Translations under genes and position numbers: made by a program | Part shown: positions 874 to 56,622 of the stretch, in pieces | Layout: every line of letters begins with the position of its first letter | How positions within the stretch are numbered: position 1 is the stretch's first letter | Notes under the pieces: model-generated | What the model saw: only the letters and a program-made list of their open reading frames with translations | Database searches by the model: none | Told to the model about the DNA's origin: nothing | From: an uncultured bacterium | GTDB taxonomy: Bacteria > 4484-113 | Assembly (NCBI GenBank): GCA_963749125.1 | Contig: CAVVLL010000001.1 | Location: 53,724 to 117,723 of the forward strand | Length of the DNA stretch: 64,000 nt | Direction: 5' to 3'

Positions 874-970
874 CGAATTGATTGCGACTTAACGAGCCGC
901 ATTCAGCTATAATTTCATATGCATCCGGCGCCGGTGGGAATACGGCGCAATTGGATCTACAGGAGGAATC

Positions 971-4836: not shown

Positions 4837-4942
4837 GCCCCCGCCCGCTTCGTAGGCAGTTACCTAGGTTGCGCCGGGACTGGCCTGCCACGCGCGGGCA
4901 TCCTCAATGCTACAATTAGCCATCTCCCGCCAGGAGGATTTG

Positions 4943-7486: not shown

Positions 7487-7499
7487 GAAGGAGAAACGG

Positions 7500-9674: not shown

Positions 9675-9686
9675 TGAGGTATTGAT

Positions 9687-17769: not shown

Positions 17770-17815
17770 GTTTATCCTCGTCTGATTGTTTGCGCCTCTG
17801 CGCGATTACAGCCTA

Positions 17816-18334: not shown

Positions 18335-18448
18335 GTCCTACACCTTAAGGTAAGCTGGAATGATTATACGATATCACCAACGCGCCCCAATTAACTGAAG
18401 GGCGGAGCATCGCCCCGCCCTTCACGAACTTCATTCAAGTAGCCTGCC

Positions 18449-21118
18449 CTACCGCGCCATCTGCGCATCCATCGCGGCGGTGATGCGCGCGTTCTCCTCT
18501 GTGAGATGCGCGCGGGTTGCATCATCCAGCCCCTTTGTGCGCAGCGCCTCAATGATAGCGGTGCGGAGGTTCGTCAGGTCGTAGCGGGCGAGGCTCGCGG
18601 CATCCAATGGCGCGCCGCTGCCGCCAATCATAAGGCCAATGAGCATCCCTGTATGCTGGCGCTGGAGGTTGCGGCGGAAGCTGTTGACGTTTTGCTTCGC
18701 GTAAACCTCTTCCCAGATGGAGTGGCGCAGCGTCTGGAACATCTCGCTCATCGTGAACTGCGATTCGCCCGGCGCGTAATGCAACGGCATGTCTTCTAGC
18801 CGCCGCAGCATCGCCGCGCTGTAGAGGTAGCCAAGCGGGCTGGTCTGGATGCCGAACACCAGCTCGTGCATCGGGAAATCCACGCGCTCGCGGTTCCAGT
18901 TCGTGCCGGAATAGTCGTCATAACGCTCGGGCGCGAGCTTGTTGAGCAGGTCGGCCGAGATGGGGAACGCATCGGCGTCAAAGATGTACTTGTCCAGGAA
19001 CGCCAGCGCCTCGCGCTGCTTGGCGGCTGAAACTGGCTTGAATGGAACACGCCCGTCGGGATCGCCGATGTGGTCGCGGTTTTGGTAGATGCCGCCGACG
19101 AAGCGCACGGCGTTGGATGCGCCCGACGAATACATGCCAAGCGCGTTGGCATAAACCCAGCGCAGGCGCTGGTAGCGCGTGCCGGGCTTCTCCAACTTGC
19201 CTTCCATGTTGCTCATGATTTCCTTGGAAAGCTCGATGTGGCCGCGGCAGGATGCAAGCGGGTCGTCGCCCAAGTCCCACATCGTCGTGAGTGGGTCAAT
19301 TCCGCGCGGCGAATTGCCTATCGCGTCTTCGTCGGTGCCGTATGTCAGCCACGGCTCGTTGGCTCGGGCGGCAATCCTGCGCAGTTCGCCAAGCTCGTCC
19401 TCGGGCGACTTAGCGGTAATGGGCTTGTAGCCGTATTCAATGGTCCAGTAGTCCCACGGGCCGAGTGTTGTCTGCCAGTAAGGCCCCTGTTTCATTCCCG
19501 GCGCTGCGAAATTCGCGTCGTTGTAGTCCATTACAGAGCCGGTCAGACCGTTCTTCTCCACGAAGTCCTTGTCTTGCAGCTCGTAGAGCGAGTGGATTGA
19601 GCTGGCACGGAAATTGTGGCGGCAGCCCATCGTGTGGCCGACTTCGTGCACGACCAGCGCCTTCACCGCGTCCTGCAGGAACTGCTTCGCCTCTGGCGAG
19701 TCGGCTGTGAAGTCGCCGCGCGCCTCAAGCAGGTTCATGCCAAAGGCGACGCGCTGCGCAAGCCCCTGGGAGAAGTCATCGCGGTATTGCGGCTGGTTCA
19801 TCCACGGGAACTTCACCGGGTTGGGCATCGCCGGCGGAGTTGACGGAGATGGGCCTTTAACGAGTTCGTAGCTATACGCATACCAGCGCAGGAAGTCGGC
19901 GCATATGCGAACGTCCGCGGCGTATATCTCGCCGGTGTAGGGGTCTGTCCAGCAAGGGCCGACCGCATATCCCTGTTCGGGCATGACAATCCAGCGCACG
20001 CAGTTGTAGCGCACGTCGGCGGAACTCCAGTCTGCATCGTCGGGCTGCTGCTTCACGACGATTGCGTCCTTAATGCCCGCTTTCTCAAACGCCTTATTCC
20101 AAGCGAGTATGCCGTCGCGCACCGCATCGCGGTATTCAACGGGGACAGTGTTCGCTACCCAATAGACTATGGGCTCTTTGGGCGGAGACACCTCCATCTC
20201 GGGGAACTGCTTCTCCAAGCGCCAGCGGTTGACCAGGCGCACGTATGCGTTGTCCGTCGCCAACGTGTCATAGTTCATATACATGGTCGTGAACAAGCCG
20301 ATGCGGTCGTCAGCGTAGCGCGACGTGTAGCCGGGCTCAGGACGGGTGCAAAGGCTGTAACGGTAACGGTGGATGAAGTTGCGCGAGTCGGGGATGGCTG
20401 GGCTGGTACTGGGAGGGGGGCCTCCGCACTTGAAGCTCGCGATTACCTCAACTTCAGTATTCTTGGGAAACGACTGAATCGTCCCGAAGCGCGTTTCCTG
20501 GTGGTCAAAGTAGTAGCCTGCGCCAATCTGGTTGAGCATGTTAGCCACCCCGGGATCCAGCAGGAACAGCGGCGATGGGTCTATGAGCATCGCGCCAGTC
20601 TTTGGGTCAGGTTCGCAGATTTGCGGAGATGAACCAACTATAGATTCTGATACGCCTGAAGCGATTGCGCGCGACATGGAGCTGCCGGGCTCGGCGCGGT
20701 AAGCGAGGTTGATTTGGATGACCTGAAGCTTCTTGCCGATTTTGCGGATTTCGAATGGGAAGTTACCCATCATCGCGCCTGAATCAAAGTAATAGCCGTC
20801 GCCGTAATCCAGCGTCAGGTTCAGCAGATACGGCACGTTTAGCTGGTCGGGCTTGACCGCAAGCAGGAATTTCTGTTCCTCTTCGTTGATGTAAAACGTG
20901 AACAAGCCTTCCACAGCCTTGCAGCCTTCAATAGCCTTCTCAAACGGGCTCTTTTCGGGCGGCGGCGGCGGAGCAGGAGGCGCGGGCGGCGCTTCTGCAG
21001 GCGCAGCAGCTGGCGGCTGATCTGGGGGTAGTGTCGGAGCTTCTTGAGCAAACGCAGCGAACGCCGTAAAGATAATCACGGCGGCGATCGCCAGCAGAAG
21101 GTGAGCGATGCGTCCCAT
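18449..21118 (-). CDS. Secreted zinc metalloprotease with a metzincin-type motif (large DUF4953-like family)
   Basis: HEVGHTMGCRH matches HExxHxxGxxH. 889 aa. Signal peptide plus a Pro/Ala-rich linker. Confidence 0.7.
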   Translation of the reverse strand: MGRIAHLLLAIAAVIIFTAFAAFAQEAPTLPPDQPPAAAPAEAPPAPPAPPPPPEKSPFEKAIEGCKAVEGLFTFYINEEEQKFLLAVKPDQLNVPYLLNLTLDYGDGYYFDSGAMMGNFPFEIRKIGKKLQVIQINLAYRAEPGSSMSRAIASGVSESIVGSSPQICEPDPKTGAMLIDPSPLFLLDPGVANMLNQIGAGYYFDHQETRFGTIQSFPKNTEVEVIASFKCGGPPPSTSPAIPDSRNFIHRYRYSLCTRPEPGYTSRYADDRIGLFTTMYMNYDTLATDNAYVRLVNRWRLEKQFPEMEVSPPKEPIVYWVANTVPVEYRDAVRDGILAWNKAFEKAGIKDAIVVKQQPDDADWSSADVRYNCVRWIVMPEQGYAVGPCWTDPYTGEIYAADVRICADFLRWYAYSYELVKGPSPSTPPAMPNPVKFPWMNQPQYRDDFSQGLAQRVAFGMNLLEARGDFTADSPEAKQFLQDAVKALVVHEVGHTMGCRHNFRASSIHSLYELQDKDFVEKNGLTGSVMDYNDANFAAPGMKQGPYWQTTLGPWDYWTIEYGYKPITAKSPEDELGELRRIAARANEPWLTYGTDEDAIGNSPRGIDPLTTMWDLGDDPLASCRGHIELSKEIMSNMEGKLEKPGTRYQRLRWVYANALGMYSSGASNAVRFVGGIYQNRDHIGDPDGRVPFKPVSAAKQREALAFLDKYIFDADAFPISADLLNKLAPERYDDYSGTNWNRERVDFPMHELVFGIQTSPLGYLYSAAMLRRLEDMPLHYAPGESQFTMSEMFQTLRHSIWEEVYAKQNVNSFRRNLQRQHTGMLIGLMIGGSGAPLDAASLARYDLTNLRTAIIEALRTKGLDDATRAHLTEENARITAAMDAQMAR

Positions 21119-33063: not shown

Positions 33064-34824
33064 TTAAGCCTTGGGTGGCTTAACAAAGAGCTTCTTCCAA
33101 GCGCGCTTCGTAAGCGCGTCCTCAATGCTCCCCGGCAGGTCGCAGAACACGCCATGCTGCGGCCATCCAGTGATGAGGCCGTCCTTTCCGCCAATCCAGT
33201 TGTAGGAATCCCTTCCCCCGCCTTCGTCAATGAACAACGATAGCGAAGTCCCGCCGTGATAGTCGTTGCCACCTGCGCGCGCCTGCCCTGCGGGGTAATC
33301 GTAAATGTCGTTACCGCCTCGGTCCCACATCACGCAAAGCGCGTTGTGCGCCGATGCGCCCTGCGAGAAGCCCCCACCGCCCTCGTAAACATCGTCGCCG
33401 CCGCCTTCAATGAACATGGTCACGCATTCATCCCACGCCAGTCCTTGCGCGACAGCTTGGCGCGTGCGGTAGCGGTCGTCACCTGAATCTTCAATAAAGC
33501 AGCCGACGGCCTGGTGTGCGCAAAAGCCCTGGTTGTATCGTGAACCGATGTAGCGGTCGTCGCCTGCGAAGTCGCGCAGGAAGCCGTAGCCGAAGTAATA
33601 CCCGCCGCCTTGCGAGAAGTTGCCGGCCTCGTAATAATCATCGCCAGCGAAGTCCATCATCCCCGCGATGCCGCCCGACGCGTATTCGCGGAAACCCATC
33701 GCGCATCCCTGCGACCATGCGTCAAAGATGCCCGCGTCGCCGTAATTGGTCGGATACTTCCCCGAGGCGTAACAGAAGTCGTCGCCGGCGGCGTCAATGT
33801 GCATGCCGATTGCGCGCGCGCCTGCGAAGCCCTGCGACTTGCACTGCGCCTCGGCGCGGTCGTTTCCGTCAAGGTCAATCTTGAGCCCGACGCCGAATAT
33901 CGCTGCGCCCTGCATCAGCTCTTCGCCGCGATAGGTGTCGTCACCGGCGCTGTCAATGAGCGCGCCTGCGCCCATGAAACCCGTCCCCTGCGACCATTGC
34001 AGGCCAACGTATTCGTCATTGCCCTGCATATCAATTAGCAGCCCGACTCCCATTGACCCGCTGCCTTGCGAATAGCGCTGCGTTGAAGAATAGTCGTCGT
34101 TGCCGCTGCATTCAATGAGCACGCCTACTGGATGCTTCAGCGAAGTCCCCGACCCCGCCGTCGTCGTGTAGAAGTCATTACCGCCAAGGTCAATGAGCAG
34201 AGTAGGAGCTTCGCCCTGCCGCCATGTCTTCCCTTCGCCAGAAATGATGAGCTTGCCCAATGGCGTTTCGCGTACGATCAAGTCCGTATCGGTTAGCTTT
34301 GTTGCGAACTCAGCGCGCAGGTCTTCCTGCATCGCCTTCAAGTAAGCGCCGTCAGTAACGCGCGCGAGCTGCATCTGCGCCAGCATTAGCTCGCCATAGT
34401 TGATGCGCTTCGCCATCTGCACAAGTTTAATGTTGCCCTTCATTCGCGCACGGTCTTCGTCTTCGTGGATGTAAGTCATCCAACAAAATACGTCGGTGAG
34501 CTGCTCGCGCTGCGTTTCAAGGAACGCTTTCTCTTCGTCGGAGAAATCCACGAACGCGGCGTTCACGTGCGTCGCGGCAGCGTCAAGAATCGCGTACAGC
34601 TGGTCAAGGTGTTGCTCAGCAGTCAGGCCGGTCTTCAGCGGCGAATATGCGGTCTTGATGGGCGCGATGTCCTGCAGGTCGCGCACCTCGTTGAGCAGCG
34701 CGCTGTAACCGTCAATGCCGCGTGACACGTAATCGCGCGCATGATCTGTGAGACTACGCGTGATTCTTTCGTCTCTTAAGTCCATCGCGCAAAATGTAAG
34801 TCGTGCGCTTGAAACGATAGCCAT
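33064..34824 (-). CDS. Repeat protein with about 13 G(N/D)DxY-containing units of about 26 aa after an N-terminal domain of about 200 aa (start uncertain, 34785-34896)
   Basis: Recurring xID..G(N/D)D.Y....SQG.G..G.G units (LGGNDFY, SGNDDY, QGNDEY, AGDDTY, AGDDYY, AGDDRY, SGDDRY, GGDDVY, GGNDIY ...). Beta-solenoid/beta-roll-like periodicity. Confidence 0.5.
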   Translation of the reverse strand: MAIVSSARLTFCAMDLRDERITRSLTDHARDYVSRGIDGYSALLNEVRDLQDIAPIKTAYSPLKTGLTAEQHLDQLYAILDAAATHVNAAFVDFSDEEKAFLETQREQLTDVFCWMTYIHEDEDRARMKGNIKLVQMAKRINYGELMLAQMQLARVTDGAYLKAMQEDLRAEFATKLTDTDLIVRETPLGKLIISGEGKTWRQGEAPTLLIDLGGNDFYTTTAGSGTSLKHPVGVLIECSGNDDYSSTQRYSQGSGSMGVGLLIDMQGNDEYVGLQWSQGTGFMGAGALIDSAGDDTYRGEELMQGAAIFGVGLKIDLDGNDRAEAQCKSQGFAGARAIGMHIDAAGDDFCYASGKYPTNYGDAGIFDAWSQGCAMGFREYASGGIAGMMDFAGDDYYEAGNFSQGGGYYFGYGFLRDFAGDDRYIGSRYNQGFCAHQAVGCFIEDSGDDRYRTRQAVAQGLAWDECVTMFIEGGGDDVYEGGGGFSQGASAHNALCVMWDRGGNDIYDYPAGQARAGGNDYHGGTSLSLFIDEGGGRDSYNWIGGKDGLITGWPQHGVFCDLPGSIEDALTKRAWKKLFVKPPKA

Positions 34825-35458
34825 CGTCGGGCGTGGCACGGTTGTAGAGGCGCAGCCACAAATCGTCGCAATCTTTGCGGATGCCGAATGCGTCAATCAT
34901 CTCGTCCATCAACGACCGAACTTGCGGGTTGGCGTCGGTAATCCCCGGCAGCAACATTTCGTTCGGCGCAAATGCACTTGTCCCAACTTCCGGCCGCTTT
35001 GCAAGGACAATTGTTGCTGTGAATGTAGTCGGTTCATTGACCGCGTCAAGCTGCGCTTTCTCCCCAACCTTCAAGTTGCCAACAATCGGCGCGAACTCAC
35101 GTAAGGGATCGGCGGTTGTATATGGCGTACCATTCAACGCGATGCTAATCTGCGGCCCGGGGCGGAAGATCTCAAGCTCAAGCGTATCGTCAACCTGCTT
35201 GTCCTTGAGCGCGTCCTGCAAAGCTGCAAGGAAACCAGCGCTGTCGCCTTCCAGCTTCTTGCCTTCAATGCCGATGATGATGTCGCCGGTGCGCAATCCT
35301 GCCAGTTCCGCAGGCGATTCCTGCACGACTTCTAGCTGGATGCCAGGCGGCTCGGTGACAACCGTCATGCGTACGCCCATATAGACGCCGTCGGCTGCGA
35401 ACGCCGCTTTCGCCACGAGAGTCAGCATTGCCGCTATGATTAAGGCAAGTAGCCTCAT
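34754..35458 (-). CDS. Periplasmic PDZ-domain protein
   Basis: Signal peptide. AELAGLRTGDIIIGIEGKKL is a PDZ core. Confidence 0.7.
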   Translation of the reverse strand: MRLLALIIAAMLTLVAKAAFAADGVYMGVRMTVVTEPPGIQLEVVQESPAELAGLRTGDIIIGIEGKKLEGDSAGFLAALQDALKDKQVDDTLELEIFRPGPQISIALNGTPYTTADPLREFAPIVGNLKVGEKAQLDAVNEPTTFTATIVLAKRPEVGTSAFAPNEMLLPGITDANPQVRSLMDEMIDAFGIRKDCDDLWLRLYNRATPDDGYRFKRTTYILRDGLKRRKNHA

Positions 35459-39320: not shown

Positions 39321-39812
39321 ATGAAGTTACAGCTACACAGCCTGTCGCCGTTGCAAATCATGCTTGCGGGGATCGCAGCTTTATCCCTGCTGGCCGCATG
39401 TTCAACCACGCACGTCCCAATTTCCGAGGCTGCCCTTCCTGGCCAAGTGAAATTGGCGTCCGACGTCCCGCCAACACCCGTCAAATCAGTAAACGTCCCG
39501 CCATTGGGTGAGGCCAATCAGGTTAGAACCATCGGCTACCATATTGACGGCCTCGGCGATTATAACCTAACCTGGCGCTACCGGCTGCTCGGAGACTACA
39601 ACCTCACGCTTAATGTTGACGTCTCCGATATAACTCCAATCGCGATGCACTTCGGCGAGACATGGGACCCCCTCGTCAATCCGGACAGCGCGGCTTCGGT
39701 CGTTGACGGAAGCGGGAATCTCACCGTCGGCGTAGAGGATATCACGCAGATTGCGATGAACTACAACCGCCGTTGCGTCTCCTACCGGGTTGAAGGCTCA
39801 GGCCGCAATTGA
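39321..39812 (+). CDS. Lipoprotein with a dockerin-like duplicated Ca-binding-type segment
   Basis: Lipobox LLAAC. Two segments NVDVSDITPIAMHFG / VVDGSGNLTVGVEDITQIAMNY resemble dockerin repeats. Confidence 0.45.
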   Translation: MKLQLHSLSPLQIMLAGIAALSLLAACSTTHVPISEAALPGQVKLASDVPPTPVKSVNVPPLGEANQVRTIGYHIDGLGDYNLTWRYRLLGDYNLTLNVDVSDITPIAMHFGETWDPLVNPDSAASVVDGSGNLTVGVEDITQIAMNYNRRCVSYRVEGSGRN

Positions 39813-40296
39813 CGGCATTTATGCCGAAGTCGGCAACGCCCCCTGCCCCACCGGATCGTCGGTGGACTTGGGCTGGCCGGAAATCGCCTTCAGCTTAGGC
39901 GCTACTCCAGCATACGAATGGTACCGCGTAGTGCCATTAGATAATGAAGGAGTCGCCGGGATAGAAAGCATCCCTGTCCATTTCGTCCCGGGCGGGGGCG
40001 GCGGCTTAATTATCAACCTAGTATCAATCGCTGAAAGCGGCACGGGCATGGAAGCGGACCCCTTCGTCATCCTCACCGGCACCGCCTACGAGATAGCGGT
40101 TGAAGATGAACACGGCAACCCGATAACCGAGGGAATTGAATTGCACGTCCAGCCCCCCTTCCTTGCCGAAGCCACTTCAACCTCTCCATTCACTATTACC
40201 CACAATGGGACTGTGACGGGCGACTTCTACGTTTACGCCACATCAGGAAGCCTGTTCAGTAACAGGCTGTATTTCCGAATACCCGGCTTGCCGTAA
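39790..40296 (+). CDS. Hypothetical protein (TTG start). Possibly the frameshifted continuation of 39321..39812.
   Basis: The ORF overlaps the upstream gene end by 23 nt in another frame. Confidence 0.35.
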   Translation: MKAQAAIDGIYAEVGNAPCPTGSSVDLGWPEIAFSLGATPAYEWYRVVPLDNEGVAGIESIPVHFVPGGGGGLIINLVSIAESGTGMEADPFVILTGTAYEIAVEDEHGNPITEGIELHVQPPFLAEATSTSPFTITHNGTVTGDFYVYATSGSLFSNRLYFRIPGLP

Positions 40297-40345
40297 GCCT
40301 GGCTAAAAACAACGCATAGTGTAATCTGGACGGAGGTAAGTCCAC

Positions 40346-43168
40346 ATGAGGACAGTAATCACGTTCATTATCGCAGCCTTAGCGCTAGCCATTCTCTTTG
40401 CCCTCTACTCCTGCGGAGGACATTCCCGCAAGGCTGTGACTTTAGCTAACACGGCTCCAATCGCCGCTCCGGCGGGGCAGCTATCTCTTAGCGTGAGTTG
40501 GCCACAGTCGCTGCCGGTTGACAAGCTCCAGCCCTGGGAGACGCTAGACGGTTCAGGCCGCTTGGCAAGCAGTATCAACCTGCAATCCCAGTTCGTCCCC
40601 GGCGCAGACCGCTTCCTTGAAGCTGGCGATGTGGTCAACCTTGGCGAGGCCTCGCGATTTGCCTCGGGAACTGCCGGCAACCGTGAAGTCTCATATGCCC
40701 TCTACCGAATACCAATGGGCTCGGAGCAACCGGGAACTATCGCCGCCGACGTGAACATCCTCGCCGGCGCTGAATACTACCTCGGCGTGGCCGACTACTC
40801 CGCCAACACCTGGCGCTGGCACGGCCCCTTCGCCGCTAACCATGTCCGCGTATCCCTGCCCGACTATGCATACACCAGCTCGCTGGGTAACTTATTCCTC
40901 GCGGCTGTGGCGTTTGACGGCTCTTCCTTTGACCTGGTCGGCCTGGGTGTGAACGCACGCGACTATGCTGACACTACGCCACCGCCAGCGCTTGCCGATG
41001 CGCCGTGGGTATCACCCTACAACGGAATGGTTCTAGTGGAATGGCCGCAGGTTGTAGCCTCTGACCTTGCAGGCTACCGCGTATACATAAATGGCGAAGA
41101 CGCTCTCGGCTACATAGAAGGCGGGACCGATGTCGCAGTGCCCACCGATGACGTTGTGGATGTAGCCGTAAGCGCAGTGGATATCAGCGGTAACGAGAGC
41201 GCCCCATCACCCGTTACAACGCAGGGGATGCCTGCTGGCACACCACCGGCTTGTCAGCTAATATCTTCCTCCGCATCCGGCATGCGCGGTGACATCATCG
41301 CCCTAACAGCATCCGGCGGCGACACCTACGACTGGGACATTGACGGCGACGGCAACTGGGATATGGTCGGCGTCACCGACACAAACGCCTTCGCCAACAC
41401 CACCAACATGGGCATCATCCGCCCGCGCATCTACGCGCATACCGCTGACGGCGGCTTCTGGATGGGCGCGGTGAGCCTCGTGATCGCAGGGAACTCGCGG
41501 CCGGTGGTCATGGCTACTGCGGACGTTATGTCCGGCCCTGCGCCTCTCAACGTTAACTTCTCGCTGATAGCTGAAGACGATGACGGCACAATCGTGGAAT
41601 ACGCCTGGGACTTTGAAGGCGACGGCATCTTCGACGCCACCTCGCCGGTCAATCCCACTCCCCTGCCATTCAGTTACCCCGCGACCGGAATGTATAACGC
41701 CAAGTTCCGCGTAACCGACAATGAAGGCGGATGGGACGTGGATACCGTCGCCATAAATGTCGCCGGAAGCCTTCCGCCCGTCGCCCTGCTAAACCTGAAC
41801 ACCGAGAAGGCATTCATGGGAGACTATGAAAGCGATGAGATTGTCTTCAACGCATCCGCAAGCTACGACCCCGACGGCGGGGCTCTTGAATATGCTTGGG
41901 ACTTGGACGGCAACGGCTTCTTCACTGCTTTCGGTGGTAACTCATCGCAGGCTAGGGTTTATACATCTCCAGGAACCCACCTCGCCAGCGTCCGCGTCCG
42001 TGACCCGCAAGGGATGGTGGCTGAGGCTTCGCGGCAAGTCTATGTTTACCGCTATATCTCTCATCTCGTAAACTCTGCAATCAGCGGCCGATATCCATCT
42101 CTTAGGGATGTTGGCGGCAAGCCTGCTATCGCGTTCTATGATTATACAAATAAAGATTTGATGTACGCGCGGGCTTCAACGGCTTCGCCATCAAGCACTG
42201 ATAATTGGCAGGTCCATTCTATCGATACAACGGACGACGTTGGGTCTCAGCCCTCGCTAGTTATCTTGACTGATGGCAATCCGGCGATGGTTTATCTGGA
42301 CCAGACTAATGGCTTGCTGAAGTTCGCACATTCAAACACAACCATCCCCGATAGCTCAGGTTACTGGTCAATACACACCGTCGTAGCAGCTAACGCAGCA
42401 ACGATGTGGGAAGATATCAGTTGCCAGTTGTGCCGCGGAGTTCCTATCATCTCTTACTATGATACTGCTACCCAAGACCTAAAATTCGCCAGGTCAACAC
42501 TGGAAATCCCCACTGCCACCGTGGATTGGGCTACACATACAATTGACAGCGGCGGCGCTGTAGGGCCGTACTCCGCTCTTTCAATAGTGACCACTGCAAC
42601 CGGCGAGTTGCCCGCGATTTACTACTACAATTCGACAAACGGCGACATCAAATATGCTCGCGCCAACTTATGGCCGCCTTCGGGTGCCGGTGATTGGACT
42701 ATTTACACACTCGACGATGGCGGCGGCAATTCTGTTGGCCAATACACCATTGGTGCCCTTCCCGATCCGGGGATTAACAATGGCAATCCTGTCGTGGTCT
42801 ATTTTGATGATACAGCTATGGACTGCAAAATAGCTTTGGCAAACACCCTTGAACCGTCCTCTTCCGCAGATTGGAACATCTACGTCCTGCGCGACGGTTC
42901 ATGGTACGTTGGCTTGAGCGCTTCGGTGCTACGCTATGGAGGAAGGCTCTTTGTCAGCTTCGGCGACCATGACAGTGAATACACATGGCTTGCGAAAGCT
43001 ATTGTCGGCAATCCAACATCTGTATCCGACTGGTGGTTCCACAGGATTGATGGCTCGTCATCAACCGATTGGTTCGGTACAAGCCTCGCGCTGGTGGACG
43101 GCAAGCCTATGCTTGCATATTACCAATACAGCTATTATCGGCTGAACATAGCTGTGCCTACGCTATAA
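40346..43168 (+). CDS. Large surface lipoprotein with an N-terminal domain, FN3-like domain, PKD domains and seven C-terminal repeats of about 52 aa (putative beta-propeller)
   Basis: Lipobox LYSC. PKD signatures EYAWDFEGDG and EYAWDLDGNG. C-terminal repeats of the form PSL...G.P.IAYYD.TN.DLKYA...P....DW..H.ID. 940 aa. Confidence 0.7.
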   Translation: MRTVITFIIAALALAILFALYSCGGHSRKAVTLANTAPIAAPAGQLSLSVSWPQSLPVDKLQPWETLDGSGRLASSINLQSQFVPGADRFLEAGDVVNLGEASRFASGTAGNREVSYALYRIPMGSEQPGTIAADVNILAGAEYYLGVADYSANTWRWHGPFAANHVRVSLPDYAYTSSLGNLFLAAVAFDGSSFDLVGLGVNARDYADTTPPPALADAPWVSPYNGMVLVEWPQVVASDLAGYRVYINGEDALGYIEGGTDVAVPTDDVVDVAVSAVDISGNESAPSPVTTQGMPAGTPPACQLISSSASGMRGDIIALTASGGDTYDWDIDGDGNWDMVGVTDTNAFANTTNMGIIRPRIYAHTADGGFWMGAVSLVIAGNSRPVVMATADVMSGPAPLNVNFSLIAEDDDGTIVEYAWDFEGDGIFDATSPVNPTPLPFSYPATGMYNAKFRVTDNEGGWDVDTVAINVAGSLPPVALLNLNTEKAFMGDYESDEIVFNASASYDPDGGALEYAWDLDGNGFFTAFGGNSSQARVYTSPGTHLASVRVRDPQGMVAEASRQVYVYRYISHLVNSAISGRYPSLRDVGGKPAIAFYDYTNKDLMYARASTASPSSTDNWQVHSIDTTDDVGSQPSLVILTDGNPAMVYLDQTNGLLKFAHSNTTIPDSSGYWSIHTVVAANAATMWEDISCQLCRGVPIISYYDTATQDLKFARSTLEIPTATVDWATHTIDSGGAVGPYSALSIVTTATGELPAIYYYNSTNGDIKYARANLWPPSGAGDWTIYTLDDGGGNSVGQYTIGALPDPGINNGNPVVVYFDDTAMDCKIALANTLEPSSSADWNIYVLRDGSWYVGLSASVLRYGGRLFVSFGDHDSEYTWLAKAIVGNPTSVSDWWFHRIDGSSSTDWFGTSLALVDGKPMLAYYQYSYYRLNIAVPTL

Positions 43169-43213
43169 CTGGAAGTACATTTCGCTTCGGCGATCTCGAT
43201 GGAGGTGTGTTCT

Positions 43214-46043
43214 ATGAAAAGGCTATTCGTTTTAATCTTTGGGGTTGTGGTTTTGGCGTTCATTGTCGCATTGACTGCATGTGGTGGAAACACTCGCAAG
43301 GCTACAGCTATCCCCGTGCTTTCGCCTGATTACGCCACAATGCTACAGCCGACGGCTAACTTGAGCTGGCCACAGTCGCTTCCGGTTGACAATCTCCAGC
43401 CTTGGGAAACGCTGGATGGCTCGGGACGATTGGTAAGCAGTATTAACCTGCAATCCCAGTTCGTTCCCGGCGCAGACAGATTCCTTGAAGCAGGCACAGT
43501 TACCGACTTAGGTGAAGCTTCTCGTTTCAACTCAGGCGATGTCGGCAACCGCGAAGTCTCATATGCCATTTACCGCATCCCGATGGGTGCTGAGCAGCCG
43601 GGGACCATCGCCGCCGATGTAAATGTTTACATCACAAGCGACTACTACGTCGGGATTGCTGACTACTCCGCCAACACATGGCGCTGGCACGGCCCATTCA
43701 AAGCGAACCATGTCCGCATTCCCCTGCCCGACCACGAATACACCAGCACTCTGGGCAACCTGATGCTGGCGGTCGTCGCATTTGACGGCGCAATGTTTGA
43801 CCTGGTAGGCCTGGGCGTGAACGCACGCGACTATGCCGACTCAACAGCGCCTGACGCCCCTCCTGCCCCGGTACTCACGCCAATCCCCGGCGGCTTGCTG
43901 GTGGAATGGCTGCCAGTGGTCGCTTCCGACTTGGCGGGCTACCGAAATCTACGCCAACGGGGCAGAGGCGCTGGGATACGTTGAGGGCGGAACCTCAGTT
44001 GTCATTCCTGCTGCTGGCCTTACTGAAATCAGGCTGCGCTCGGTGGATGTCTCCGGCAACGAAAGCGATTTCTCTGAGCCTGCTTCTGCGGGCGCGATGG
44101 AAGGCTACTTGCTCAACGTCATCCTGGCTACCACGGCAGCGTCAGGGCGCAGGGGCGAAATCATCGCGCTTAACGCCATTGGCGGCGAATCTTACGACTG
44201 GGACGTTGATGGCGATGGGACTTACGACGTCACCGGCGACCTGACTGGCACCGCGTTCGTCAACACCGATAGCTTAGGCATCATCCGCCCGTCTGTCCGT
44301 GGACACCACTCTAACGGCAGCTTCTGGATGGCTGCGGTGAGCCTGATTATCTCCGGCAATTCGCGGCCGGTGGCGATGGCGACGGTAGATATTGCGTCCG
44401 GCCCCGCCCCTCTGATGGTGAATTTCACCATTGTCGGTGAAGATGATGATGGGACTATCGTTGAGTATGCCTGGGACTTTGAGGGTGACGGCATCTTTGA
44501 CGCTACCTCGCCGGTCAATCCCACTCCTTTGCCATTCAGCTACCCCGCGACCGGAATGTATAACGCGAAGTTCCGAGTGACCGACAACGATGGCGGATGG
44601 GACGTGGATACCGTCGCCATAAATGTCGCCGGAAGCCTTCCGCCAGTCGCCCTGCTTAACCTGAATACCGAGAAGGCCTACATGGGCGAGCTTGCTCCAA
44701 GTGACGAGATTATCTTCAACGCATCCGCAAGCTACGACCCTGACGGGGGCTCACTTGAATACGCCTGGGACTTGGACGGCAACGGCTTCTTTACCGGCTT
44801 CGGGCCAGGTGCGATTATTGCTCAGGCGTATAATGCGCCGGGAACTTACCAGGCTGCAGTCCGCGTCCGCGACGCTCAGGGCATGGTAACCGAGGCTTCG
44901 CGCCAAGTGTATGTTTACCGCTGGAAGCGCTACAGCATTGATTCTACTTCATCCCCTATGCGGCCTTCAATTGCCATATCTGCAGGATATCCTGTATGCG
45001 CATATTACGGGAGCGGAGCGCAAGACTTGATGTTCGCTTATGCGACTACTAAATACCCAACCAGCAATTCTGACTGGCGCAGTTACGCGATAGAAACTAC
45101 GAATGCGGTAGGAGATTGGCCGTCGTTAGTGGTTTTAGGTGATGGCACCCTTGCAGTCTCGTACTCCGACGCTTCGAACGGTGACTTGAGATTTGCGTAT
45201 TCAAACTCCGCCTTACCAATTTCAAATGCTGATTGGTCCATATACCCGATAGACACAGGGGGATCCGTAGGTCTCTACAGCTCAATAGCACTTCGTGATG
45301 GATACCCCATCATTAGCTATTACGACTCTACTAATAGCGACTTGAAGTACGCCGAGTCTTCAGTGACAAATCCGACTTCCGCGCTTGAATGGGTCACCCA
45401 TACGGTTGACGACGGTACTAATGTTGGCCAATACACGCGTATGTGCGTTGTATCAACACCTACTCTGCTTCCTGCTATTGCATACTATGACCCAGGCAAT
45501 CAATCGTTGAAGTATGCCCGCGCAACTATCTCATCGCCCACTTCGTCTAGCGACTGGATTATCCACACTTTAGCAACCGGAGCGCAAGCTGGATACGCTG
45601 GCTTGGGTGCGCTACAGTATCCCGGCACCACTAACGGGAATCCAGTAGTAGCCTATATTGATTGGGATAACTACGATTTGAGAATTGCCACTGCAAACGT
45701 CTTGGAGCCTTCCGGCCCAGGGGATTGGAACGATTACATCCTTGACGATGGAATAAACTTCTATATCGGCCATTCAGCTACGGTCATGAAACATGCAGGC
45801 AGGCTGTACGTTGCCTACAACGATATGGATGATTATATCTATGATCTGAAGCTTGCGAAATCCAAAGTGGCTAATCCGGCTTCACCATCAGACTGGACAC
45901 TCCATACCGTGGACTCAAGCTATGCCTTCATTGACTGGTGGGGAATCAGCATGACGCTGCAGGATGGAAAAGTTGTTTTGTCATATGGGAATGATAGTGG
46001 TTTGGGCCGACAAATCAGCATCGCCATTCCGGCTCTTGAATAA
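43214..46043 (+). CDS. Paralogous large PKD/repeat lipoprotein, interrupted by a 1-nt frameshift near 43944-43947
   Basis: Same architecture as 40346..43168. ORFs 43199..43984 and 43833..46043 join if one base is restored in ...ggctaccga(g)aaatctac... (DLAGYR | EIYANGAEA). Confidence 0.6.
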
Positions 46044-46093
46044 ACGTCCGCTTCTTTGAGGAGTGGGCTGTAATTTGCCTGACTGGGGCGCGC

Positions 46094-46130
46094 TTTCATC
46101 GCGAAGGCGCGCCCTTCTTTATGTGGCCGC
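46094..46130 (+). terminator. Putative intrinsic terminator
   Basis: ggggcgcgc-tttcatcgcgaag-gcgcgccc followed by ttctttatg. Confidence 0.5.
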
Positions 46131-46201
46131 GCTAGGCAGGCGTTGCAGGAATCTCATGGGTGCTGAATAGCGAAAGCCTGCCGGAGGGCAGGCATAAAAA
46201 A

Positions 46202-46318
<117 letters not shown>

Positions 46319-46324: not shown

Positions 46325-46352
46325 ATTATACAACACCTAATGCGCGTGTCAA
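46325..46352 (-). promoter_or_regulatory. Consensus sigma70-type promoter driving the 5S rRNA
   Basis: The minus strand reads TTGACA-cgcgcattaggtgttg(16)-TATAAT-cactg, then the 5S 5' end. Confidence 0.6.
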
Positions 46353-51559: not shown

Positions 51560-52533
51560 TTCGGAGACAGTTGTAACATCGAGGAGGCACTAGGAGGTGT
51601 TATTCGATGGGACAACGAGGCATATCTGGCAGCACGGATCTGCGTATGGCGGCAGTGCGCGCGATAACAGAGGAAGGAGTTGGGATCGCTCAAGCCGCAA
51701 GCCTGTTTGGCGTTAGCAGGCAGAGCATATGGCGTTGGGTATCCCGCTACCGCGAGGGCGGTGAACCGGGACTGAAGGAGATTTCCCGGCGGCCTGCGAG
51801 CAGCCCAGTGCAGGCGTGCCGCGAGAAGGAAGATGCCGTCTTGAAACTCAGGCAGGACAGGGCCTGGGGCGCTGCGAGAATAGGGTCGAGAGTTGGCCTG
51901 GCGGGAAGCACGGTTCACCGTATCCTGCGCGAGCACGGCATATCGAAGATACAGGTGCCGCGCAAGAAATACCCGCGTTACGAGATGGCCTTTCCCGGCG
52001 AGCTCGTGCACATAGACTCCAAGGAGTTGGTGCCGTTGCGAGCTGGGATGCGGCCTGAGTTCCTTTTCGCCGCGCTGGACGGATACAGCCGCGAAGTGTT
52101 CTTGCAGGTGTTTCCCCGGGCTGATAGCGCCTCCAGTTCCGAATTTCTGGAATGGCTGATAGACACAATTCCCTACAGACTTTGCGGCGTCATGACCGAC
52201 AATGCGTGGGCTTTCACTATGCGGCTAAGCGCCCACCCAGACCGGCGCACGCCTTTCCAAAACCTGCTGGAGCGAAACGGCGTTGAGCACCGCCTGACCA
52301 AGCCTTACCACCCGCGCACCAACGGCAAGGTGGAGCGCTTCTTCGGCACGGTCGGAAGGGAGCTGCTTCGCGTCGTGCGTTTCCACGACAGCGCTCACAG
52401 GAGGGACGAATTAGCCTGCTTTGGCTCCTATTACAACCTTGTCCGGCCCCATTCCGCAATCAACCATCACTCCCCAACCCCCTACCGTATACAATACTTT
52501 CAAGCTAACCCCGATGTAACATATGTCTCCGAA
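51560..52533 (+). mobile_element. IS481-family-like insertion sequence
   Basis: Terminal inverted repeats ttcggagaca (51560-51569) and tgtctccgaa (52524-52533). They enclose a single transposase ORF. Confidence 0.6.
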
Positions 52534-52536
52534 TAG
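51607..52536 (+). CDS. DDE transposase (rve integrase core) with an N-terminal helix-turn-helix (HTH), IS481-like
   Basis: HTH segment GVSRQSIWRWVSRY. DDE/rve core ...DNAWAF... KPYHPRTNGKVERFF. Confidence 0.8.
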   Translation: MGQRGISGSTDLRMAAVRAITEEGVGIAQAASLFGVSRQSIWRWVSRYREGGEPGLKEISRRPASSPVQACREKEDAVLKLRQDRAWGAARIGSRVGLAGSTVHRILREHGISKIQVPRKKYPRYEMAFPGELVHIDSKELVPLRAGMRPEFLFAALDGYSREVFLQVFPRADSASSSEFLEWLIDTIPYRLCGVMTDNAWAFTMRLSAHPDRRTPFQNLLERNGVEHRLTKPYHPRTNGKVERFFGTVGRELLRVVRFHDSAHRRDELACFGSYYNLVRPHSAINHHSPTPYRIQYFQANPDVTYVSE

Positions 52537-52637: not shown

Positions 52638-53612
52638 GTGGACGAGACCGAAAAGGGGAAAGCTGCCTCCGAAAAAGCGCCCAAGCGCAGGCATGCGGCG
52701 TGGTGGGTGGAGATACTCATCGCCATCGCGGTCGTGCTCGTCATCGTTGGCATAGCGATACCGGCGTATAACCAGCACAAACTCACGCTTAAGACCGCGC
52801 AGGCAGAACAGAATCTTCGAGAGATAGGGTACGCATTAGGGGAATATTCCTCCAAAGATCAGAACGCCTGGAAGTTTCCTGAGTACCTAATCGGAGGAAG
52901 CGCCCCTTCCACTGGAAGCAAGGACGCATCCGACCCGCTAATCCGCGAAGGTTATCTCGCTTCATATCCTAAGAACCCATTCGCAGCGATGGTGAACGTG
53001 AGCGAGATACAGAAGAAATACAACGACCCACTAAGGCCTGGCGGTGAAGGCTCCAAGTTTGGCTTTCGTTTCGGCGAAGACGGCGCGCTCATGGGAAACG
53101 TGCTGGCTGATGTGCGCTTCTCCGGCAAATACGCCGAATTCGGTTATCCCTTCTATGATTTATGGCCAAAAGACAAGCGCCGTCCAAAGGAATATATCCC
53201 CGGCGCGTTTTTCTATCGCAGTTGTCCGACGCTCGTTTCTACAAGTAATTTGTCAGGAGAACAGCCGAAATCCCAGTTCCGAAGCCCTGAGATGTATGGC
53301 AGCCTATGGTCAAGCGCCGCTTATGCGAAGCGGGCTCCATGGGTGCCTAAAGGCGGCGCCGAGAACTACATACTTGGGCTGTATGGGCCAATTAACAGCC
53401 CAGGAAAAGATATTCTCGGCGAACCTCAAATGATGGTCTATTACTATCCCATACACAAAGATCGGGAGAAGGTAGGCGTGATGGGATATACATACAGTGA
53501 CCCTAATAAGACTTCGCCATTTGGTTCCCAGATTGATCTTGAACCACCTCTCAATCCAAATGGGATTCCCGATTGCATTGTGTTCAATTGGTATGGACCG
53601 ATGGATTCATGA
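52638..53612 (+). CDS. Pilin-like protein: type IV prepilin-like N-terminus plus a globular domain of about 290 aa (paralog 1 of 4)
   Basis: KRRHA|AWWVEILIAIAVVLVIVGIAIPAYN aligns position-for-position with G|FTLIELMIVVAIIGILAAIAIPQY (Glu at +5, Pro at +22, Tyr at +24). Confidence 0.6.
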   Translation: MDETEKGKAASEKAPKRRHAAWWVEILIAIAVVLVIVGIAIPAYNQHKLTLKTAQAEQNLREIGYALGEYSSKDQNAWKFPEYLIGGSAPSTGSKDASDPLIREGYLASYPKNPFAAMVNVSEIQKKYNDPLRPGGEGSKFGFRFGEDGALMGNVLADVRFSGKYAEFGYPFYDLWPKDKRRPKEYIPGAFFYRSCPTLVSTSNLSGEQPKSQFRSPEMYGSLWSSAAYAKRAPWVPKGGAENYILGLYGPINSPGKDILGEPQMMVYYYPIHKDREKVGVMGYTYSDPNKTSPFGSQIDLEPPLNPNGIPDCIVFNWYGPMDS

Positions 53613-53627
53613 TTTCAGGAGAGAACA

Positions 53628-54641
53628 ATGAGCGCTGAGCGCGGGAATCATCTTGTGAGAAAAGGGAACGAGCGCGCGTTATGGCTCGTTGAAATCACGT
53701 TAGCGTTAATCCTCATCGTAATAATCGCGGGAGTTGCAATGCCAAGCTACACCGCGCATAAAAAGGCTAAGCTACACTCCGAGCTCAACAGCGGTTTATA
53801 CGAGATTCAACAAGGGCTTGAACGTTTCGCCGTTGACCACGGCAAGACGTATCCTGACTACCTGATTGGCGGAAGCGCACCAGACTTTTCGGGGGATTTC
53901 GGCAATTCATCCCCGCAGGCGTCGGACGTTTTACTGCGCGAAGGATACTTACAGGAATATCCGCCAAATCCATTCATGGTTACGCAGCAAGTGGAGGAAA
54001 TGCAGGAGGAATTTAGCGACCTTTTCCGCCCTGGGACTGCGCAGTCTATGTATGGCTGCCGCTTCGGAGATGATTATGACTTGATGGGCCAGGTGATGGC
54101 CGATTTTCGCTTCCCCAAGCTGGAAGGGCAGAAGCCGATTACCAAGGATGGGATGACCTATTACGATGATGTCCAATATCCCTGCTTTAATCTTTGGATG
54201 CTGGAGACGAAAAGGTTTTTCCCGGGGGAGTTCTTCTACAAGTCCGCCGGAAGCATCATGTTATCCAAGTTGTATAAGCCCAACCCCAACCAGCCGTTGG
54301 TAGCTGCTAAATCCGAAGTATATGTGCTCGGTGTTTATGGCGGCCCGCGCGACAAGGGCATGGATGTGCTGGGATGGGAGCCGCAAGTCGCATTCCGCAC
54401 CAAAAAGGCAAACTCAGAGCAGCCAGCCGAGTTCAAGCTTCCGCTTTGGACCCGCTCTTCAATGAGGACTTTTGGCGAAGGTAAGTATGTTTATTCAGGA
54501 AGCCCCTTCGGTGAGCCGAGGGAATACATAGATTACGGGTTTAGGCTTATCTCGTTTGACGGGCAGCAAGACGGAGTGATCACGACGATGCAACCAGAGC
54601 CGATCATCACCGCTTTTATCTCCGACGGGACTAAGAAATGA
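53628..54641 (+). CDS. Pilin-like protein, paralog 2 of 4
   Basis: ERA|LWLVEITLALILIVIIAGVAMPSYTAH. Shares YPDYLIGGSAP, REGYL..YP.NPF and PGEFFYKSAG with the other three. Confidence 0.6.
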   Translation: MSAERGNHLVRKGNERALWLVEITLALILIVIIAGVAMPSYTAHKKAKLHSELNSGLYEIQQGLERFAVDHGKTYPDYLIGGSAPDFSGDFGNSSPQASDVLLREGYLQEYPPNPFMVTQQVEEMQEEFSDLFRPGTAQSMYGCRFGDDYDLMGQVMADFRFPKLEGQKPITKDGMTYYDDVQYPCFNLWMLETKRFFPGEFFYKSAGSIMLSKLYKPNPNQPLVAAKSEVYVLGVYGGPRDKGMDVLGWEPQVAFRTKKANSEQPAEFKLPLWTRSSMRTFGEGKYVYSGSPFGEPREYIDYGFRLISFDGQQDGVITTMQPEPIITAFISDGTKK

Positions 54642-55609
54642 CCGACGAGATGAAGAGTGAGGAAGTAAAAGCGCCGAAGCGCAGGCATGCGGCTTGGTGG
54701 GTGGAGATACTCATCGCCATCGCCGTCGTCATCGTCGTCGTTGGCATAGCGATCCCGGCGTATAACGCAAAGAAGACAGAAGCGCGGCGCACAGAAGCCA
54801 AGGCAAAACTACACGAGATACAGCTCGCCATTGAGCACTCCGCGGTGGACACAGGCGGGACATACCCCGATTACCTCATTGGCGGAAGCGCGCCACGCGG
54901 CGACGACCCTAAGCAACCCTTTGCCAATGCATCCGACACGCTTTTACGCAAAGGATATTTAACCGCTTACCCCCGAAACCCATTCGCAGTGCCGCACAGA
55001 GTGGAGGCGATGCAGGAGAAGTACCGCGACCCGTTTAGGCCCGGCACAAGCGAGTCCAAGTATGGCTATCGTTTCGGTGAGGATTACATGCTCATGGGCC
55101 AGGTGCTCGCCGACTTTCGGTTCCCGAAGGCGCTTGTATTCAATGGCAAGAAGCTTACTTCGCACCCAAGCTACGCCGACTTCGGCTACCCATTCTGGGA
55201 TATCTGGCCGAGAAACTCAAAGCCTAGGCCATTCCTCCCGGGCGAGTTCTTCTACAAGTCAGCGGGGAATATCGTCGTGACTAATAAGGAAAGCGTTAAT
55301 CCAGACAGGCCGCTTGTGCCGACTATCGTAGAAATATACATGCTGGGTTTGTATGGTAGTGCGAAAGATACCGGAAAAGATGTCCTCGGAGCTGAGCCGA
55401 CAACGACTTTCCGGACTTATACAGACCAGGCAAAGACACTTGAGGAATTCACTGTTCCTGTGTGGACGCGCTCTACTGACAAGCCTGATAATAATGGTGA
55501 GTTTCTCGGTTCGCCTTACGGCCCTGGTGAGTGGCAATTTGACTACGAAAATCCCAACAAGATTCCAGATGCAATAATCCTCGTTATTGTCCCAGGCGAA
55601 GACACGTAA
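54638..55609 (+). CDS. Pilin-like protein, paralog 3 of 4
   Basis: KRRHA|AWWVEILIAIAVVIVVVGIAIPAYN. Conserved C-terminal domain. Confidence 0.6.
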   Translation: MTDEMKSEEVKAPKRRHAAWWVEILIAIAVVIVVVGIAIPAYNAKKTEARRTEAKAKLHEIQLAIEHSAVDTGGTYPDYLIGGSAPRGDDPKQPFANASDTLLRKGYLTAYPRNPFAVPHRVEAMQEKYRDPFRPGTSESKYGYRFGEDYMLMGQVLADFRFPKALVFNGKKLTSHPSYADFGYPFWDIWPRNSKPRPFLPGEFFYKSAGNIVVTNKESVNPDRPLVPTIVEIYMLGLYGSAKDTGKDVLGAEPTTTFRTYTDQAKTLEEFTVPVWTRSTDKPDNNGEFLGSPYGPGEWQFDYENPNKIPDAIILVIVPGEDT

Positions 55610-55623
55610 GGAGCGCAAGACTA

Positions 55624-56622
55624 ATGGCCGATGAAAATACTGCCTCCAAGAATGCGCCGAAGCGCAGGCGGGCGGCGTGGTGGGTGGAGATACTCATCGC
55701 CATCGCCGTCATCCTCGTCGTCGTTGGAATAGCGTTGCCTTCATATAACATCGACAGGGCCAATGCGCGACGTGGGGAAGCCAAGAAGAATCTTCATGAG
55801 ATTCAACTGGCGGTTGAGCGGTATGCAATGGGAACAGGCGGGATGTATCCTGAGTTCTTGCTTGGCGGCAGCGCCCCACACGATGAAGACCAGAGGAACC
55901 TCCCTGCGCAGGCATCAGACCCGCTTATACGGGAAGGCTATCTAACCGAGTATCCCCGAAATCCTTTCGCCGTGCCGCAGACAGTGAAAGCCATGCAGGA
56001 GAAATACAACGACCCGTTCAGGCCGGGCACTGAGCAATCCAAGTTTGGGATGCGCTTCGGTGAAGATTACACGCTAATGGGCCAGGTCCTCGCTGACTTC
56101 CGTTACCCCAAGTTGCCCGGCCAGAAGATGACGCAATCCAACGGCATCTATTACTACGCAGATACCGAATATCCTTTCTGGGATATTTGGGCTAATCGCT
56201 TTAATCCTAAGTCCTTTCTTCCAGGCGAGTTTTTTTATAAGACATATGGCATGCTTGAATTCGCCAGCGAAAAAGATGTTCCCACAGATCGTCCCATCGC
56301 GCCGAAGATAGCTGAAATCTATTTGTTAGGGTTATATGGCGGTATTAGGGATAGAGGTAAAGATGTTCTGGGGATGGAATATAAGGTTTATTTCCATCCT
56401 AACTTTGAGGGAGCATCAAGATACGATGATTTCACTGCTCAGACTTGGACTCGTTCAACAATGACACTAGACGCAAGAGGAGAATTTCAGGGCAGTGCAT
56501 TCGGCCTCACGATAGGGGCGGACGTAGAACAGCTCGGATACGGTAGTCCTAATGGAATCGCAGATGCGATTATATTAGGGCTTGTCCCCGGCGAAGATAC
56601 AACGCCTTACGCTTATCCTTAA
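55624..56622 (+). CDS. Pilin-like protein, paralog 4 of 4
   Basis: KRRRA|AWWVEILIAIAVILVVVGIALPSYN. Conserved C-terminal domain. Confidence 0.6.
   Translation: MADENTASKNAPKRRRAAWWVEILIAIAVILVVVGIALPSYNIDRANARRGEAKKNLHEIQLAVERYAMGTGGMYPEFLLGGSAPHDEDQRNLPAQASDPLIREGYLTEYPRNPFAVPQTVKAMQEKYNDPFRPGTEQSKFGMRFGEDYTLMGQVLADFRYPKLPGQKMTQSNGIYYYADTEYPFWDIWANRFNPKSFLPGEFFYKTYGMLEFASEKDVPTDRPIAPKIAEIYLLGLYGGIRDRGKDVLGMEYKVYFHPNFEGASRYDDFTAQTWTRSTMTLDARGEFQGSAFGLTIGADVEQLGYGSPNGIADAIILGLVPGEDTTPYAYP

Follow-up and report, generated by a model that had tools for sequence, protein, structure and literature searches.

What do two adjacent genes of nearly equal length and the same domain order contribute to the cell, and is the second of them broken? 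These questions are raised by a locus in a 64,000-nucleotide stretch of DNA from an uncultured bacterium (contig CAVVLL010000001.1, positions 53,724 to 117,723 of the forward strand; hereafter the window). An earlier note on this DNA described the genes, here called copy 1 and copy 2, as tandem paralogues encoding giant lipoproteins. Two adjacent genes with the same architecture have been confirmed at 40346–43168 and 43214–46043; however, products of 940 amino acids are large rather than giant. The two are old paralogues and belong to a multigene family typical of UBP7, an uncultured candidate phylum. The family is new and uncurated, and both its folds and its kind of architecture are already known. 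The explanation that best accounts for the whole, and that is considered a little better than evenly balanced, is that the locus encodes co-transcribed envelope lipoproteins of the UBP7 family, which display stalked, lectin-like propellers, and that copy 2 carries one extra base. It offers a first structural interpretation of a surface-protein family that is abundant and lineage-specific and belongs to a phylum represented by metagenomes only.

The C-terminal part of the proteins is predicted to be a seven-bladed β-propeller. Seven units, each with an invariant Trp, can be aligned over the last 370 residues, with repeats of 48–59 amino acids, and the AlphaFold2 (AF2) model of this region (predicted local distance difference test, pLDDT, 92.3; predicted template modelling score, pTM, 0.91) contains 28 strands, four in each of seven blades. 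The propeller of copy 1 is closed by an N-terminal strand formed by residues 572–574. The earlier proposal that the repeats form a seven-bladed propeller is thus borne out by structure prediction, and the accompanying remark that the repeat lies outside known families also holds: hidden Markov model searches with a single sequence or a profile gave no match to the propeller in Pfam, NCBIfam or PDB sequences, and neither phmmer nor profile hmmsearch against all PDB sequences produced one at E ≤ 10. The Pfam family DUF4959 was matched in six of 21 propeller homologues, with a best E value of 6e-6; it is absent from the window protein, and the matches have been treated as local chance or repeat matches. 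All invariant and nearly invariant columns of the propeller alignment fall in a motif that recurs in each blade, S-L..G.P-A-I.Y.D....L.Y-A......W....D, and include a Trp that opens strand D, the outer strand, of blades 1–6. The alignment contains no blade-specific conserved residue that would point to a single active site.

The four best PDB matches of the propeller model in Foldseek are the fucose lectins PLL3, PLL4, PLL5, and PLL of Photorhabdus (entries 8q83, 8q81, 8q82, and 8q7u), with E values of 5e-13 to 4e-12, template modelling (TM) scores of 0.65–0.76, and 14–15% identity in the structural alignment. Lower in the ranking are PL24 lyases, sialidases, GH43 enzymes, and LGI1. In PLL lectins, fucose and O-methylated sugars are bound by repeated inter-blade sites that use Trp residues (PMC6943638). 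The propellers of the window share with the PLL family (PLL, PLL2–5, PHL) the seven blades of about 50 amino acids, the regular repeat, and the conserved Trp. By contrast, there is no sequence or profile match between them, and PLLs are small, soluble proteins without an anchor or a stalk. Sugar binding by the propellers of the window is predicted from the likeness of the folds.

Alternatively, the stalk could display a catalytic propeller, for instance a polysaccharide lyase or a sialidase-like glycosidase. The Foldseek matches also include PL24 ulvan lyases, a pseudaminidase, sialidases, and GH43 enzymes with E values of 1e-9 to 1e-6, one distant homologue bears the name ‘sialidase family protein’, and precomputed matches to BNR_2 or BNR_4 occur sporadically among distant homologues. 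However, the TM scores to the enzymes, 0.4–0.55, are below those to the lectins, and no Asp-box (S-x-D-x-G-x-T-W) was found in the propeller even with a relaxed pattern. Conservation is confined to the per-blade repeat and includes no blade-specific invariant Arg, Glu, or Tyr, and the near-identical blades of many relatives are ill-suited to a single asymmetric active site. Membership in the sialidase/BNR superfamily, with which the propellers share the fold and weak Foldseek matches, has been rejected, because they have seven blades instead of six and lack a conserved catalytic set (Arg triad, Tyr/Glu nucleophile). A catalytic head is quite unlikely on this evidence; binding is favoured over catalysis by the per-blade conservation, the resemblance of the model to PLL lectins, and, as described below, the swapping of heads between relatives and the presence of the repeat alongside modules for secretion and anchoring.

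The rest of the protein consists of a lipid-anchor signal, an N-terminal β-sandwich, and a stalk of immunoglobulin (Ig)-like domains. The signal peptides of both proteins end in a lipobox, the consensus of which in Lgt/LspA substrates is [LVI][ASTVI][GAS]-C, and the LYSC and LTAC motifs that the earlier note had read in copy 1 and copy 2 have been verified; the latter is canonical. Of 26 aligned homologues, at least 90% have the Cys. An AF2 model of residues 25–300, built from an alignment of 21 sequences (pLDDT 85.6), consists of a disordered tether, an all-β sandwich at residues ~80–205, and an FN3 domain. The N-terminal domain has no Pfam or PDB sequence match. Foldseek matches it in the PDB to the accessory sandwich and FN3 domains of the GH85 endo-N-acetylglucosaminidases Endo-A and Endo-D, a β-1,2-glucanase, CBM86 (TM 0.64 on the target), CBM6, and the ligand-binding domain of an ephrin receptor, which weakly suggests a jelly roll similar to that of carbohydrate-binding modules (CBMs).

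The FN3-like segment that had been noticed after the N-terminal domain finds support in a profile built on residues 1–300, positions 200–290 of which match fibronectin FN3 repeats with an E value of 4e-5, and in a β-sandwich at residues ~220–295 of the AF2 model, in the position of FN3; the Pfam fn3 model itself gives no match at E ≤ 0.1. The Ig/PKD-like ‘mid’ domain that follows is a putative one, since Pfam makes no call there. The PKD domains named in the earlier note number two in each copy and score above the Pfam thresholds: PKD_4 (PF18911) matches the two copies with 64.5 and 70.9 bits (cut-off 27), and PKD (PF00801) with 54.6 and 57.2 bits (cut-off 23.5), each model in two stretches per copy. 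NCBIfam adds nothing to these domains. The use of two PKD domains as a spacer, and the public label ‘PKD domain-containing protein’, recall PKD surface proteins and adhesins. However, PKD domains make up less than 20% of the protein, whereas the uncurated N-terminal domain and propeller together account for more than 55%.

The N-terminal module defines the family. Copy 1 retrieves 234 relatives; among the 124 that were fetched, 120 have kept the N-terminal module and 99 this propeller, and others bear PQQ/BamB-like (PF13360, PF13570) or BNR-like propellers. Both window copies align with the 120 relatives over the whole module, which comprises the lipobox, β-sandwich, FN3 domain, domain with the YDWDxDGDG motif, and PKD domains in an N-terminal position. 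Full-length relatives in species-representative genomes come only from metagenome-assembled genomes (MAGs) that are named UBP7 or labelled ‘bacterium’ or ‘Planctomycetales bacterium’ by NCBI. Genomes contain several family loci; for example, AC1.30 has seven or more, and the 4.1-Mb chromosome CP060262 encodes six or more of the proteins. An exhaustive profile search with the N-terminal module found 452 cluster representatives at E ≤ 1e-30, including some multi-FN3 giants that are matched on their FN3 part alone; the full module is always N-terminal in this library and occurs in proteins of ~850–1200 amino acids. In the literature, UBP7 is mentioned only in MAG catalogues.

The propeller repeat alone is distributed more widely. 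It occurs in at least 959 proteins, nearly all of which are unannotated, with carriers labelled as Chloroflexi, Bacteroidota, Verrucomicrobia, Gemmatimonadetes, and one archaeal MAG (Hadarchaeota). Elsewhere, the repeat co-occurs with sorting domains of the type IX secretion system (T9SS) and with PKD, choice-of-anchor, and dockerin modules. A widespread β-propeller repeat outside the curated families has thus been flagged, and it merits a family model.

The analysis demonstrates the gene structure, the folds of the domains, the distribution of the family, synteny, concerted evolution, and the nature of the frameshift; from it we infer lipidation, surface exposure, the class of the ligand, and the cause of the frameshift. 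The N-terminus would be anchored by lipid and followed by a short disordered tether and the CBM-like sandwich. The stalk, formed by the FN3, PKD-like, and two PKD domains, would keep the propeller away from the membrane, and the propeller would bind an extracellular ligand, most probably a glycan, in a multivalent manner. The heads of the two copies, which are 44% identical, probably differ in specificity. Gene conversion would hold the shared N-terminal domain and PKD segments alike, and the shared sandwich may have a common job, either in anchoring or in contact with a partner or carbohydrate. The suggestion of the earlier note that the locus encodes a cell-surface binding or adhesion module is therefore plausible as far as fold resemblance and architecture go (lipobox, Ig-like stalk, lectin-like head, CBM-like sandwich, and dockerin-like neighbour).

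Several observations weigh against a glycan-binding surface protein. A Foldseek TM score of ~0.7 is usual between any two seven-bladed propellers, the Trp conserved on the outer strand of the blades could be structural only, and there is no sequence-level tie to any lectin or CBM family. The Foldseek matches of the N-terminal domain are weak, with TM scores of 0.2–0.34 on the query, and are confounded by the attached FN3 domain. The neighbourhood consists of housekeeping and peptidase genes and includes none for glycan utilization. Finally, a lipoprotein of a diderm bacterium may be oriented towards the periplasm. The proteins could then be scaffolds or platforms for protein interactions that face the periplasm, similar to BamB or TolB. 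The PQQ/BamB-like propellers of paralogues from the same family and the housekeeping character of the neighbouring genes agree with such a role, and lipoproteins with Gly at position +2 are commonly located on the inner face of the outer membrane. However, four Ig-like domains and a CBM-like sandwich are typical of extracellular proteins and not of periplasmic chaperones, the modules with which the repeat co-occurs (T9SS sorting, dockerin, and choice-of-anchor domains) mark secreted or surface proteins, and several copies per genome with swapped heads suggest diversified ligand recognition. A periplasmic scaffold is therefore unlikely, and display of a lectin-like head at the cell surface is preferred. 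The SusE/SusF-type lipoproteins of Bacteroidota have a lipid anchor, tandem β-sandwiches, and non-catalytic binding modules, and are encoded by multigene sets. The UBP7 proteins resemble them in all of these respects; however, there is no homology between the two groups, neither SusC/SusD nor glycoside hydrolases are encoded nearby, and the head is a propeller instead of a CBM.

The two copies are 59% identical in amino acids and 62% in nucleotides overall, and the identity is distributed as a mosaic (Table 1). The PKD region, which the earlier note estimated to be about 90% identical at the nucleotide level, is 87–93% identical over 41591–41845 and 44457–44711, and 93–100% identical in amino acids. 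In this tract, the amino acid identity of 93% between the copies contrasts with at most 69% to any other homologue. The number of synonymous substitutions per synonymous site (dS) between the copies is 0.51 in the PKD tract and 0.94 in the N-terminal domain, and is saturated in the FN3 domain and the propeller. Over residues 405–505, the nucleotide identity is 87%, the longest identical run is 53 nucleotides, and 30 of the 40 mismatches are at third codon positions. In both the window and a relative with its own tandem pair (contig L092), the N-terminal domains of tandem partners are 78–79% alike as opposed to 66% between orthologues, whereas the FN3 domains follow orthology. By these sequence comparisons, the N-terminal domain and PKD segments have evidently undergone repeated gene conversion that was confined to the shared modules, and thus concerted evolution. 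The paralogy and the conversion tract proposed from the window are in this way extended to two lineages, and the tandem pair neatly illustrates, on a small scale, concerted evolution that is restricted to certain domains. The antisense open reading frames (ORFs) at 41431–41658 and 44222–44524, to which the earlier note had drawn attention for their common prefix, do share 29 amino acids including the start residue, as a by-product of the near-identical tract. A target of a diversity-generating retroelement was considered for the tract and rejected, because the mismatches include every type and fall chiefly on third codon positions; no reverse transcriptase gene was found among the window genes scanned.

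Four loci from close relatives (L079–L082) have the gene order isochorismatase (−), glyoxalase (−), a lipoprotein of 345–350 amino acids (+), and one family member (+). The order in the window is the same, except that two family members are present. On contig L092, the small lipoprotein gene, of which only the end is present, is followed by P0002, which is the orthologue of copy 1 according to the 70–76% identity of its FN3 and mid domains, and then by a second family member. The tandem pair therefore predates the genome of the window. In L079–L082, the single family member is followed by a gene of 169–209 amino acids, the homologue of which is located elsewhere in the window, at 13361–13939; therefore, the locus has been rearranged as well as duplicated.

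The product of copy 1 is identical to the public protein P0001. By contrast, copy 2 is represented in the ORF list by a frame of 261 amino acids (43199..43984), which begins 30 nucleotides past copy 1 and overlaps a frame of 736 amino acids in the next register (43833..46043), and in the public annotation only by a 648-amino-acid fragment (P0018) that starts from 44097. The only match of copy 1 to the window in a tblastn search is the copy 2 locus, in two frames that meet at 43944/43945. The likeliest start of copy 2 is Met 43214, which has GGAGG 8 nucleotides before its ATG. The earlier note attributed the break to one missing base. This has the wrong sign, because the frame is restored only by a one-base deletion: in a systematic test, no single-base insertion anywhere in the overlap of the two copy 2 frames restored the ORF. 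The site reads ccgaaatc (tac-cga-aat-cta), and the removal of one of its three A’s results in the sequence GYRIYANG, equal in length to GY[RH]VY[VI]NG of the homologues, and in an ORF of 942 amino acids. On the sequence, the break is one base too many; two bases too few would be less parsimonious.

Copy 2 is not the only gene affected. The PDZ-domain gene on the opposite strand is broken by one extra base near 34773 (TAAGAG[A]CGAAAG), and its orthologue in L079 is an intact gene of 804 amino acids. A third +1 break is in the upstream lipoprotein gene, near 39800–39805: the intact orthologues of L079, L080, and L082 (345–350 amino acids) follow frame 3 as far as 39800 and frame 1 from 39790 onwards, and a deletion of one base, but never an insertion, produces an ORF of 324 amino acids. 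Thus, three breaks are located within 13 kb, each established against an intact orthologue and each repaired only by the deletion of one base. A scan of all overlapping same-strand ORF pairs over the 64 kb, with Pfam coverage or the syntenic orthologues as a check, brought no break to light besides these three, and the broken genes are three of the 13 that have syntenic orthologues. Programmed frameshifting and phase variation have been rejected for these sites, because the orthologues are intact, the three contexts are unrelated, and the runs are only 2–3 nucleotides long.

Copy 2 could be a real pseudogene that was inactivated very recently, as could the upstream lipoprotein and PDZ genes. 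The deposited sequence contains the frameshift, and copy 2 is split in the public annotation; being redundant with its tandem paralogue, it would be an obvious gene to lose. Insertions and deletions are not rife in the assembly, the other long genes of the window that were checked being intact, and the extra bases are in very short runs (AAA, GG/CC, AGA), whereas systematic errors typically fall in long homopolymers; both observations also weigh against an artefact. However, the pseudogene explanation is weakened because three genes within 13 kb, one of which encodes a conserved PDZ protein of 800 amino acids, share the same one-extra-base defect relative to intact orthologues. The frames downstream of the three breaks are free of stop codons over 2.1, 1.7, and 0.5 kb, and the ratio of nonsynonymous to synonymous substitution rates (dN/dS) in copy 2 is 0.08–0.29 on both sides of the break, far below 1, which indicates purifying selection. 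These open frames and low ratios fit either errors or very recent events. An independent, intact allele of copy 2 was sought by exact-pattern and protein-guided scans of Joint Genome Institute (JGI) metagenomes, which found nothing closer than 53%. Recent inactivation is accordingly a possibility with somewhat less than an even chance, and if the three genes were real pseudogenes, they would point to relaxed selection on the surface-protein locus in this population. The extra base of copy 2 is judged to be as probably, or somewhat more probably, an assembly or sequencing artefact; the apparent pseudogene is probably not biology, and the three breaks within 13 kb call for caution over ‘pseudogenes’ in this assembly.

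The two family members and the upstream lipoprotein gene are separated by 49 and 45 nucleotides, and a ribosome-binding site precedes each of the large genes. The only strong terminator-like hairpin at the locus is the one after copy 2. Since there is none between the three genes, they probably form a single transcription unit, 39321–46043. The upstream gene was described in the earlier note as a dockerin-like lipoprotein at 39321–39812; its product is indeed predicted to be a lipoprotein, but the interval covers only the 5' part of the frameshifted gene, which extends to 40296. Its repeats follow the pattern D/N-x-(D/N)-G-x-V-x-x-x-D-I-T-x-I-A-x-x-F/Y-G, and the first repeat of the window copy lacks the acidic residues of the loop, having NLTLNV in place of DQNGSV. 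The Pfam model Dockerin_1 matches neither the window protein nor its nearest orthologues at E ≤ 0.1. A distant locus of the UBP7 MAG HKST-UBA03 (L006, 9854–22276) encodes a family member of 1970 amino acids, with the same N-terminal module, many PKD domains, and PQQ-like propellers, followed by lipoproteins of 1109 and 1024 amino acids that combine a dockerin-like module with PQQ-like propellers. Dockerin_1 scores 25.2 bits (cut-off 22.9) on one of these two lipoproteins and 18.2 bits, below the cut-off, on the other, and the segment of the window protein aligns to the corresponding region of both. In 10 of the UBP7 loci that were fetched, dockerin-like segments are no more than 10 kb away from family members. 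The upstream lipoprotein resembles dockerin-bearing non-cellulosomal proteins in its two putative repeats of the Ca-loop type, and differs from them in that the window copy and its closest orthologues remain under the Dockerin_1 threshold and that no cohesin has been identified.

It is conceivable, but very unlikely, that UBP7 bacteria build a cellulosome-like surface assembly, in which the N-terminal sandwich would act like a cohesin, dockerin-like lipoproteins would plug into it, and the propellers, whether of the unclassified lectin-like repeat or of the PQQ-like or BNR-like kind, would be interchangeable heads. Such a docking role would explain why the N-terminal domain is kept uniform by gene conversion, and the heads would constitute a diverse repertoire for capturing substrates or the surfaces of prey.

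Table 1 Features of the tandem lipoprotein locus and of genes mentioned with it. Positions refer to the window; identities are between copy 1 and copy 2, in per cent of amino acids (aa) unless stated; nt, nucleotides.
Feature	Position	Strand	Identity	Basis or remark
Copy 1, intact lipoprotein gene	40346..43168	+		940 aa; GGAGG 9 nt before ATG
Signal peptide and lipobox of copy 1	40346..40414	+	36 (with tether)	LYS-C23; atypical Tyr at −2
N-terminal β-sandwich, family-defining	40481..40990 (aa 46–215)	+	79	AF2, all-β
FN3 domain	40991..41230 (aa 216–295)	+	51–54 (with next domain)	Profile match and AF2 sandwich; copy 2 equivalent contains the frameshift
Putative Ig/PKD-like mid domain	41231..41515 (aa 296–390)	+		Conserved YDWDxDGDG motif
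Two PKD domains, copy 1	41516..42061 (aa ~391–572)	+	74 (second domain)	Pfam, two stretches per model
Putative gene-conversion tract	41591..41845 (copy 1, aa 416–500); partner 44457–44711 (copy 2)	+	93 (87–93 nt)	High identity, low dS
Predicted seven-bladed β-propeller head, copy 1	42062..43165; in copy 2 from ~44916	+	44 (C-terminal repeats)	AF2
Blades 1–7 of copy 1	aa 579–630, 631–689, 690–737, 738–794, 795–853, 854–905, 906–940			
Copy 2 gene	43214..46043	+		942 aa once one A is removed; domain order as in copy 1
Copy 2 frameshift	43944..43946	+		AAA where AA is expected (taccgAAAtctac)
Terminator-like hairpin	46085..46115	+		GC-rich, 13-bp stem, 3' of copy 2
Upstream lipoprotein gene	39321..40296	+		Signal peptide, lipobox LAAC, two dockerin-like Ca-loop repeats, C-terminal domain without assigned function
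PDZ-domain gene	33064–35458	−		800 aa; split into 34754..35458 and 33064..34896
5S ribosomal RNA gene, stand-alone	46201–46317	−		Full-length Rfam match of 104.5 bits; immediately follows copy 2

The 5S ribosomal RNA (rRNA) gene that lies next to copy 2 is preceded by a promoter-like site at 46352–46325 (−) with a perfect TTGACA-16-TATAAT arrangement. Neither 16S nor 23S rRNA is present in the 64-kb window; therefore, the 5S gene is not linked to the large rRNAs, the distance being no less than 17 kb in one direction and 46 kb in the other. Further downstream, an IS481-like transposase/integrase (51607–52536, +; rve and helix-turn-helix domains) is followed by four consecutive ORFs of 323–337 amino acids (52638–56622, +), which have no Pfam match and may form a paralogous array. 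Elsewhere in the window, two adjacent hemerythrin-domain genes (17371–18337, −), encoding 145 and 173 amino acids, constitute a tandem duplicate. A run of peptidase genes at 4907–10883 (+) encodes an M16 insulinase-like protein (859 amino acids), an M1 peptidase (724 amino acids), and an HtrA-like trypsin with a PDZ domain (398 amino acids); a Met-zincin of the DUF4953 family (889 amino acids) is encoded further on, at 18449–21118 (−). The run of peptidases hints at a proteolytic lifestyle.

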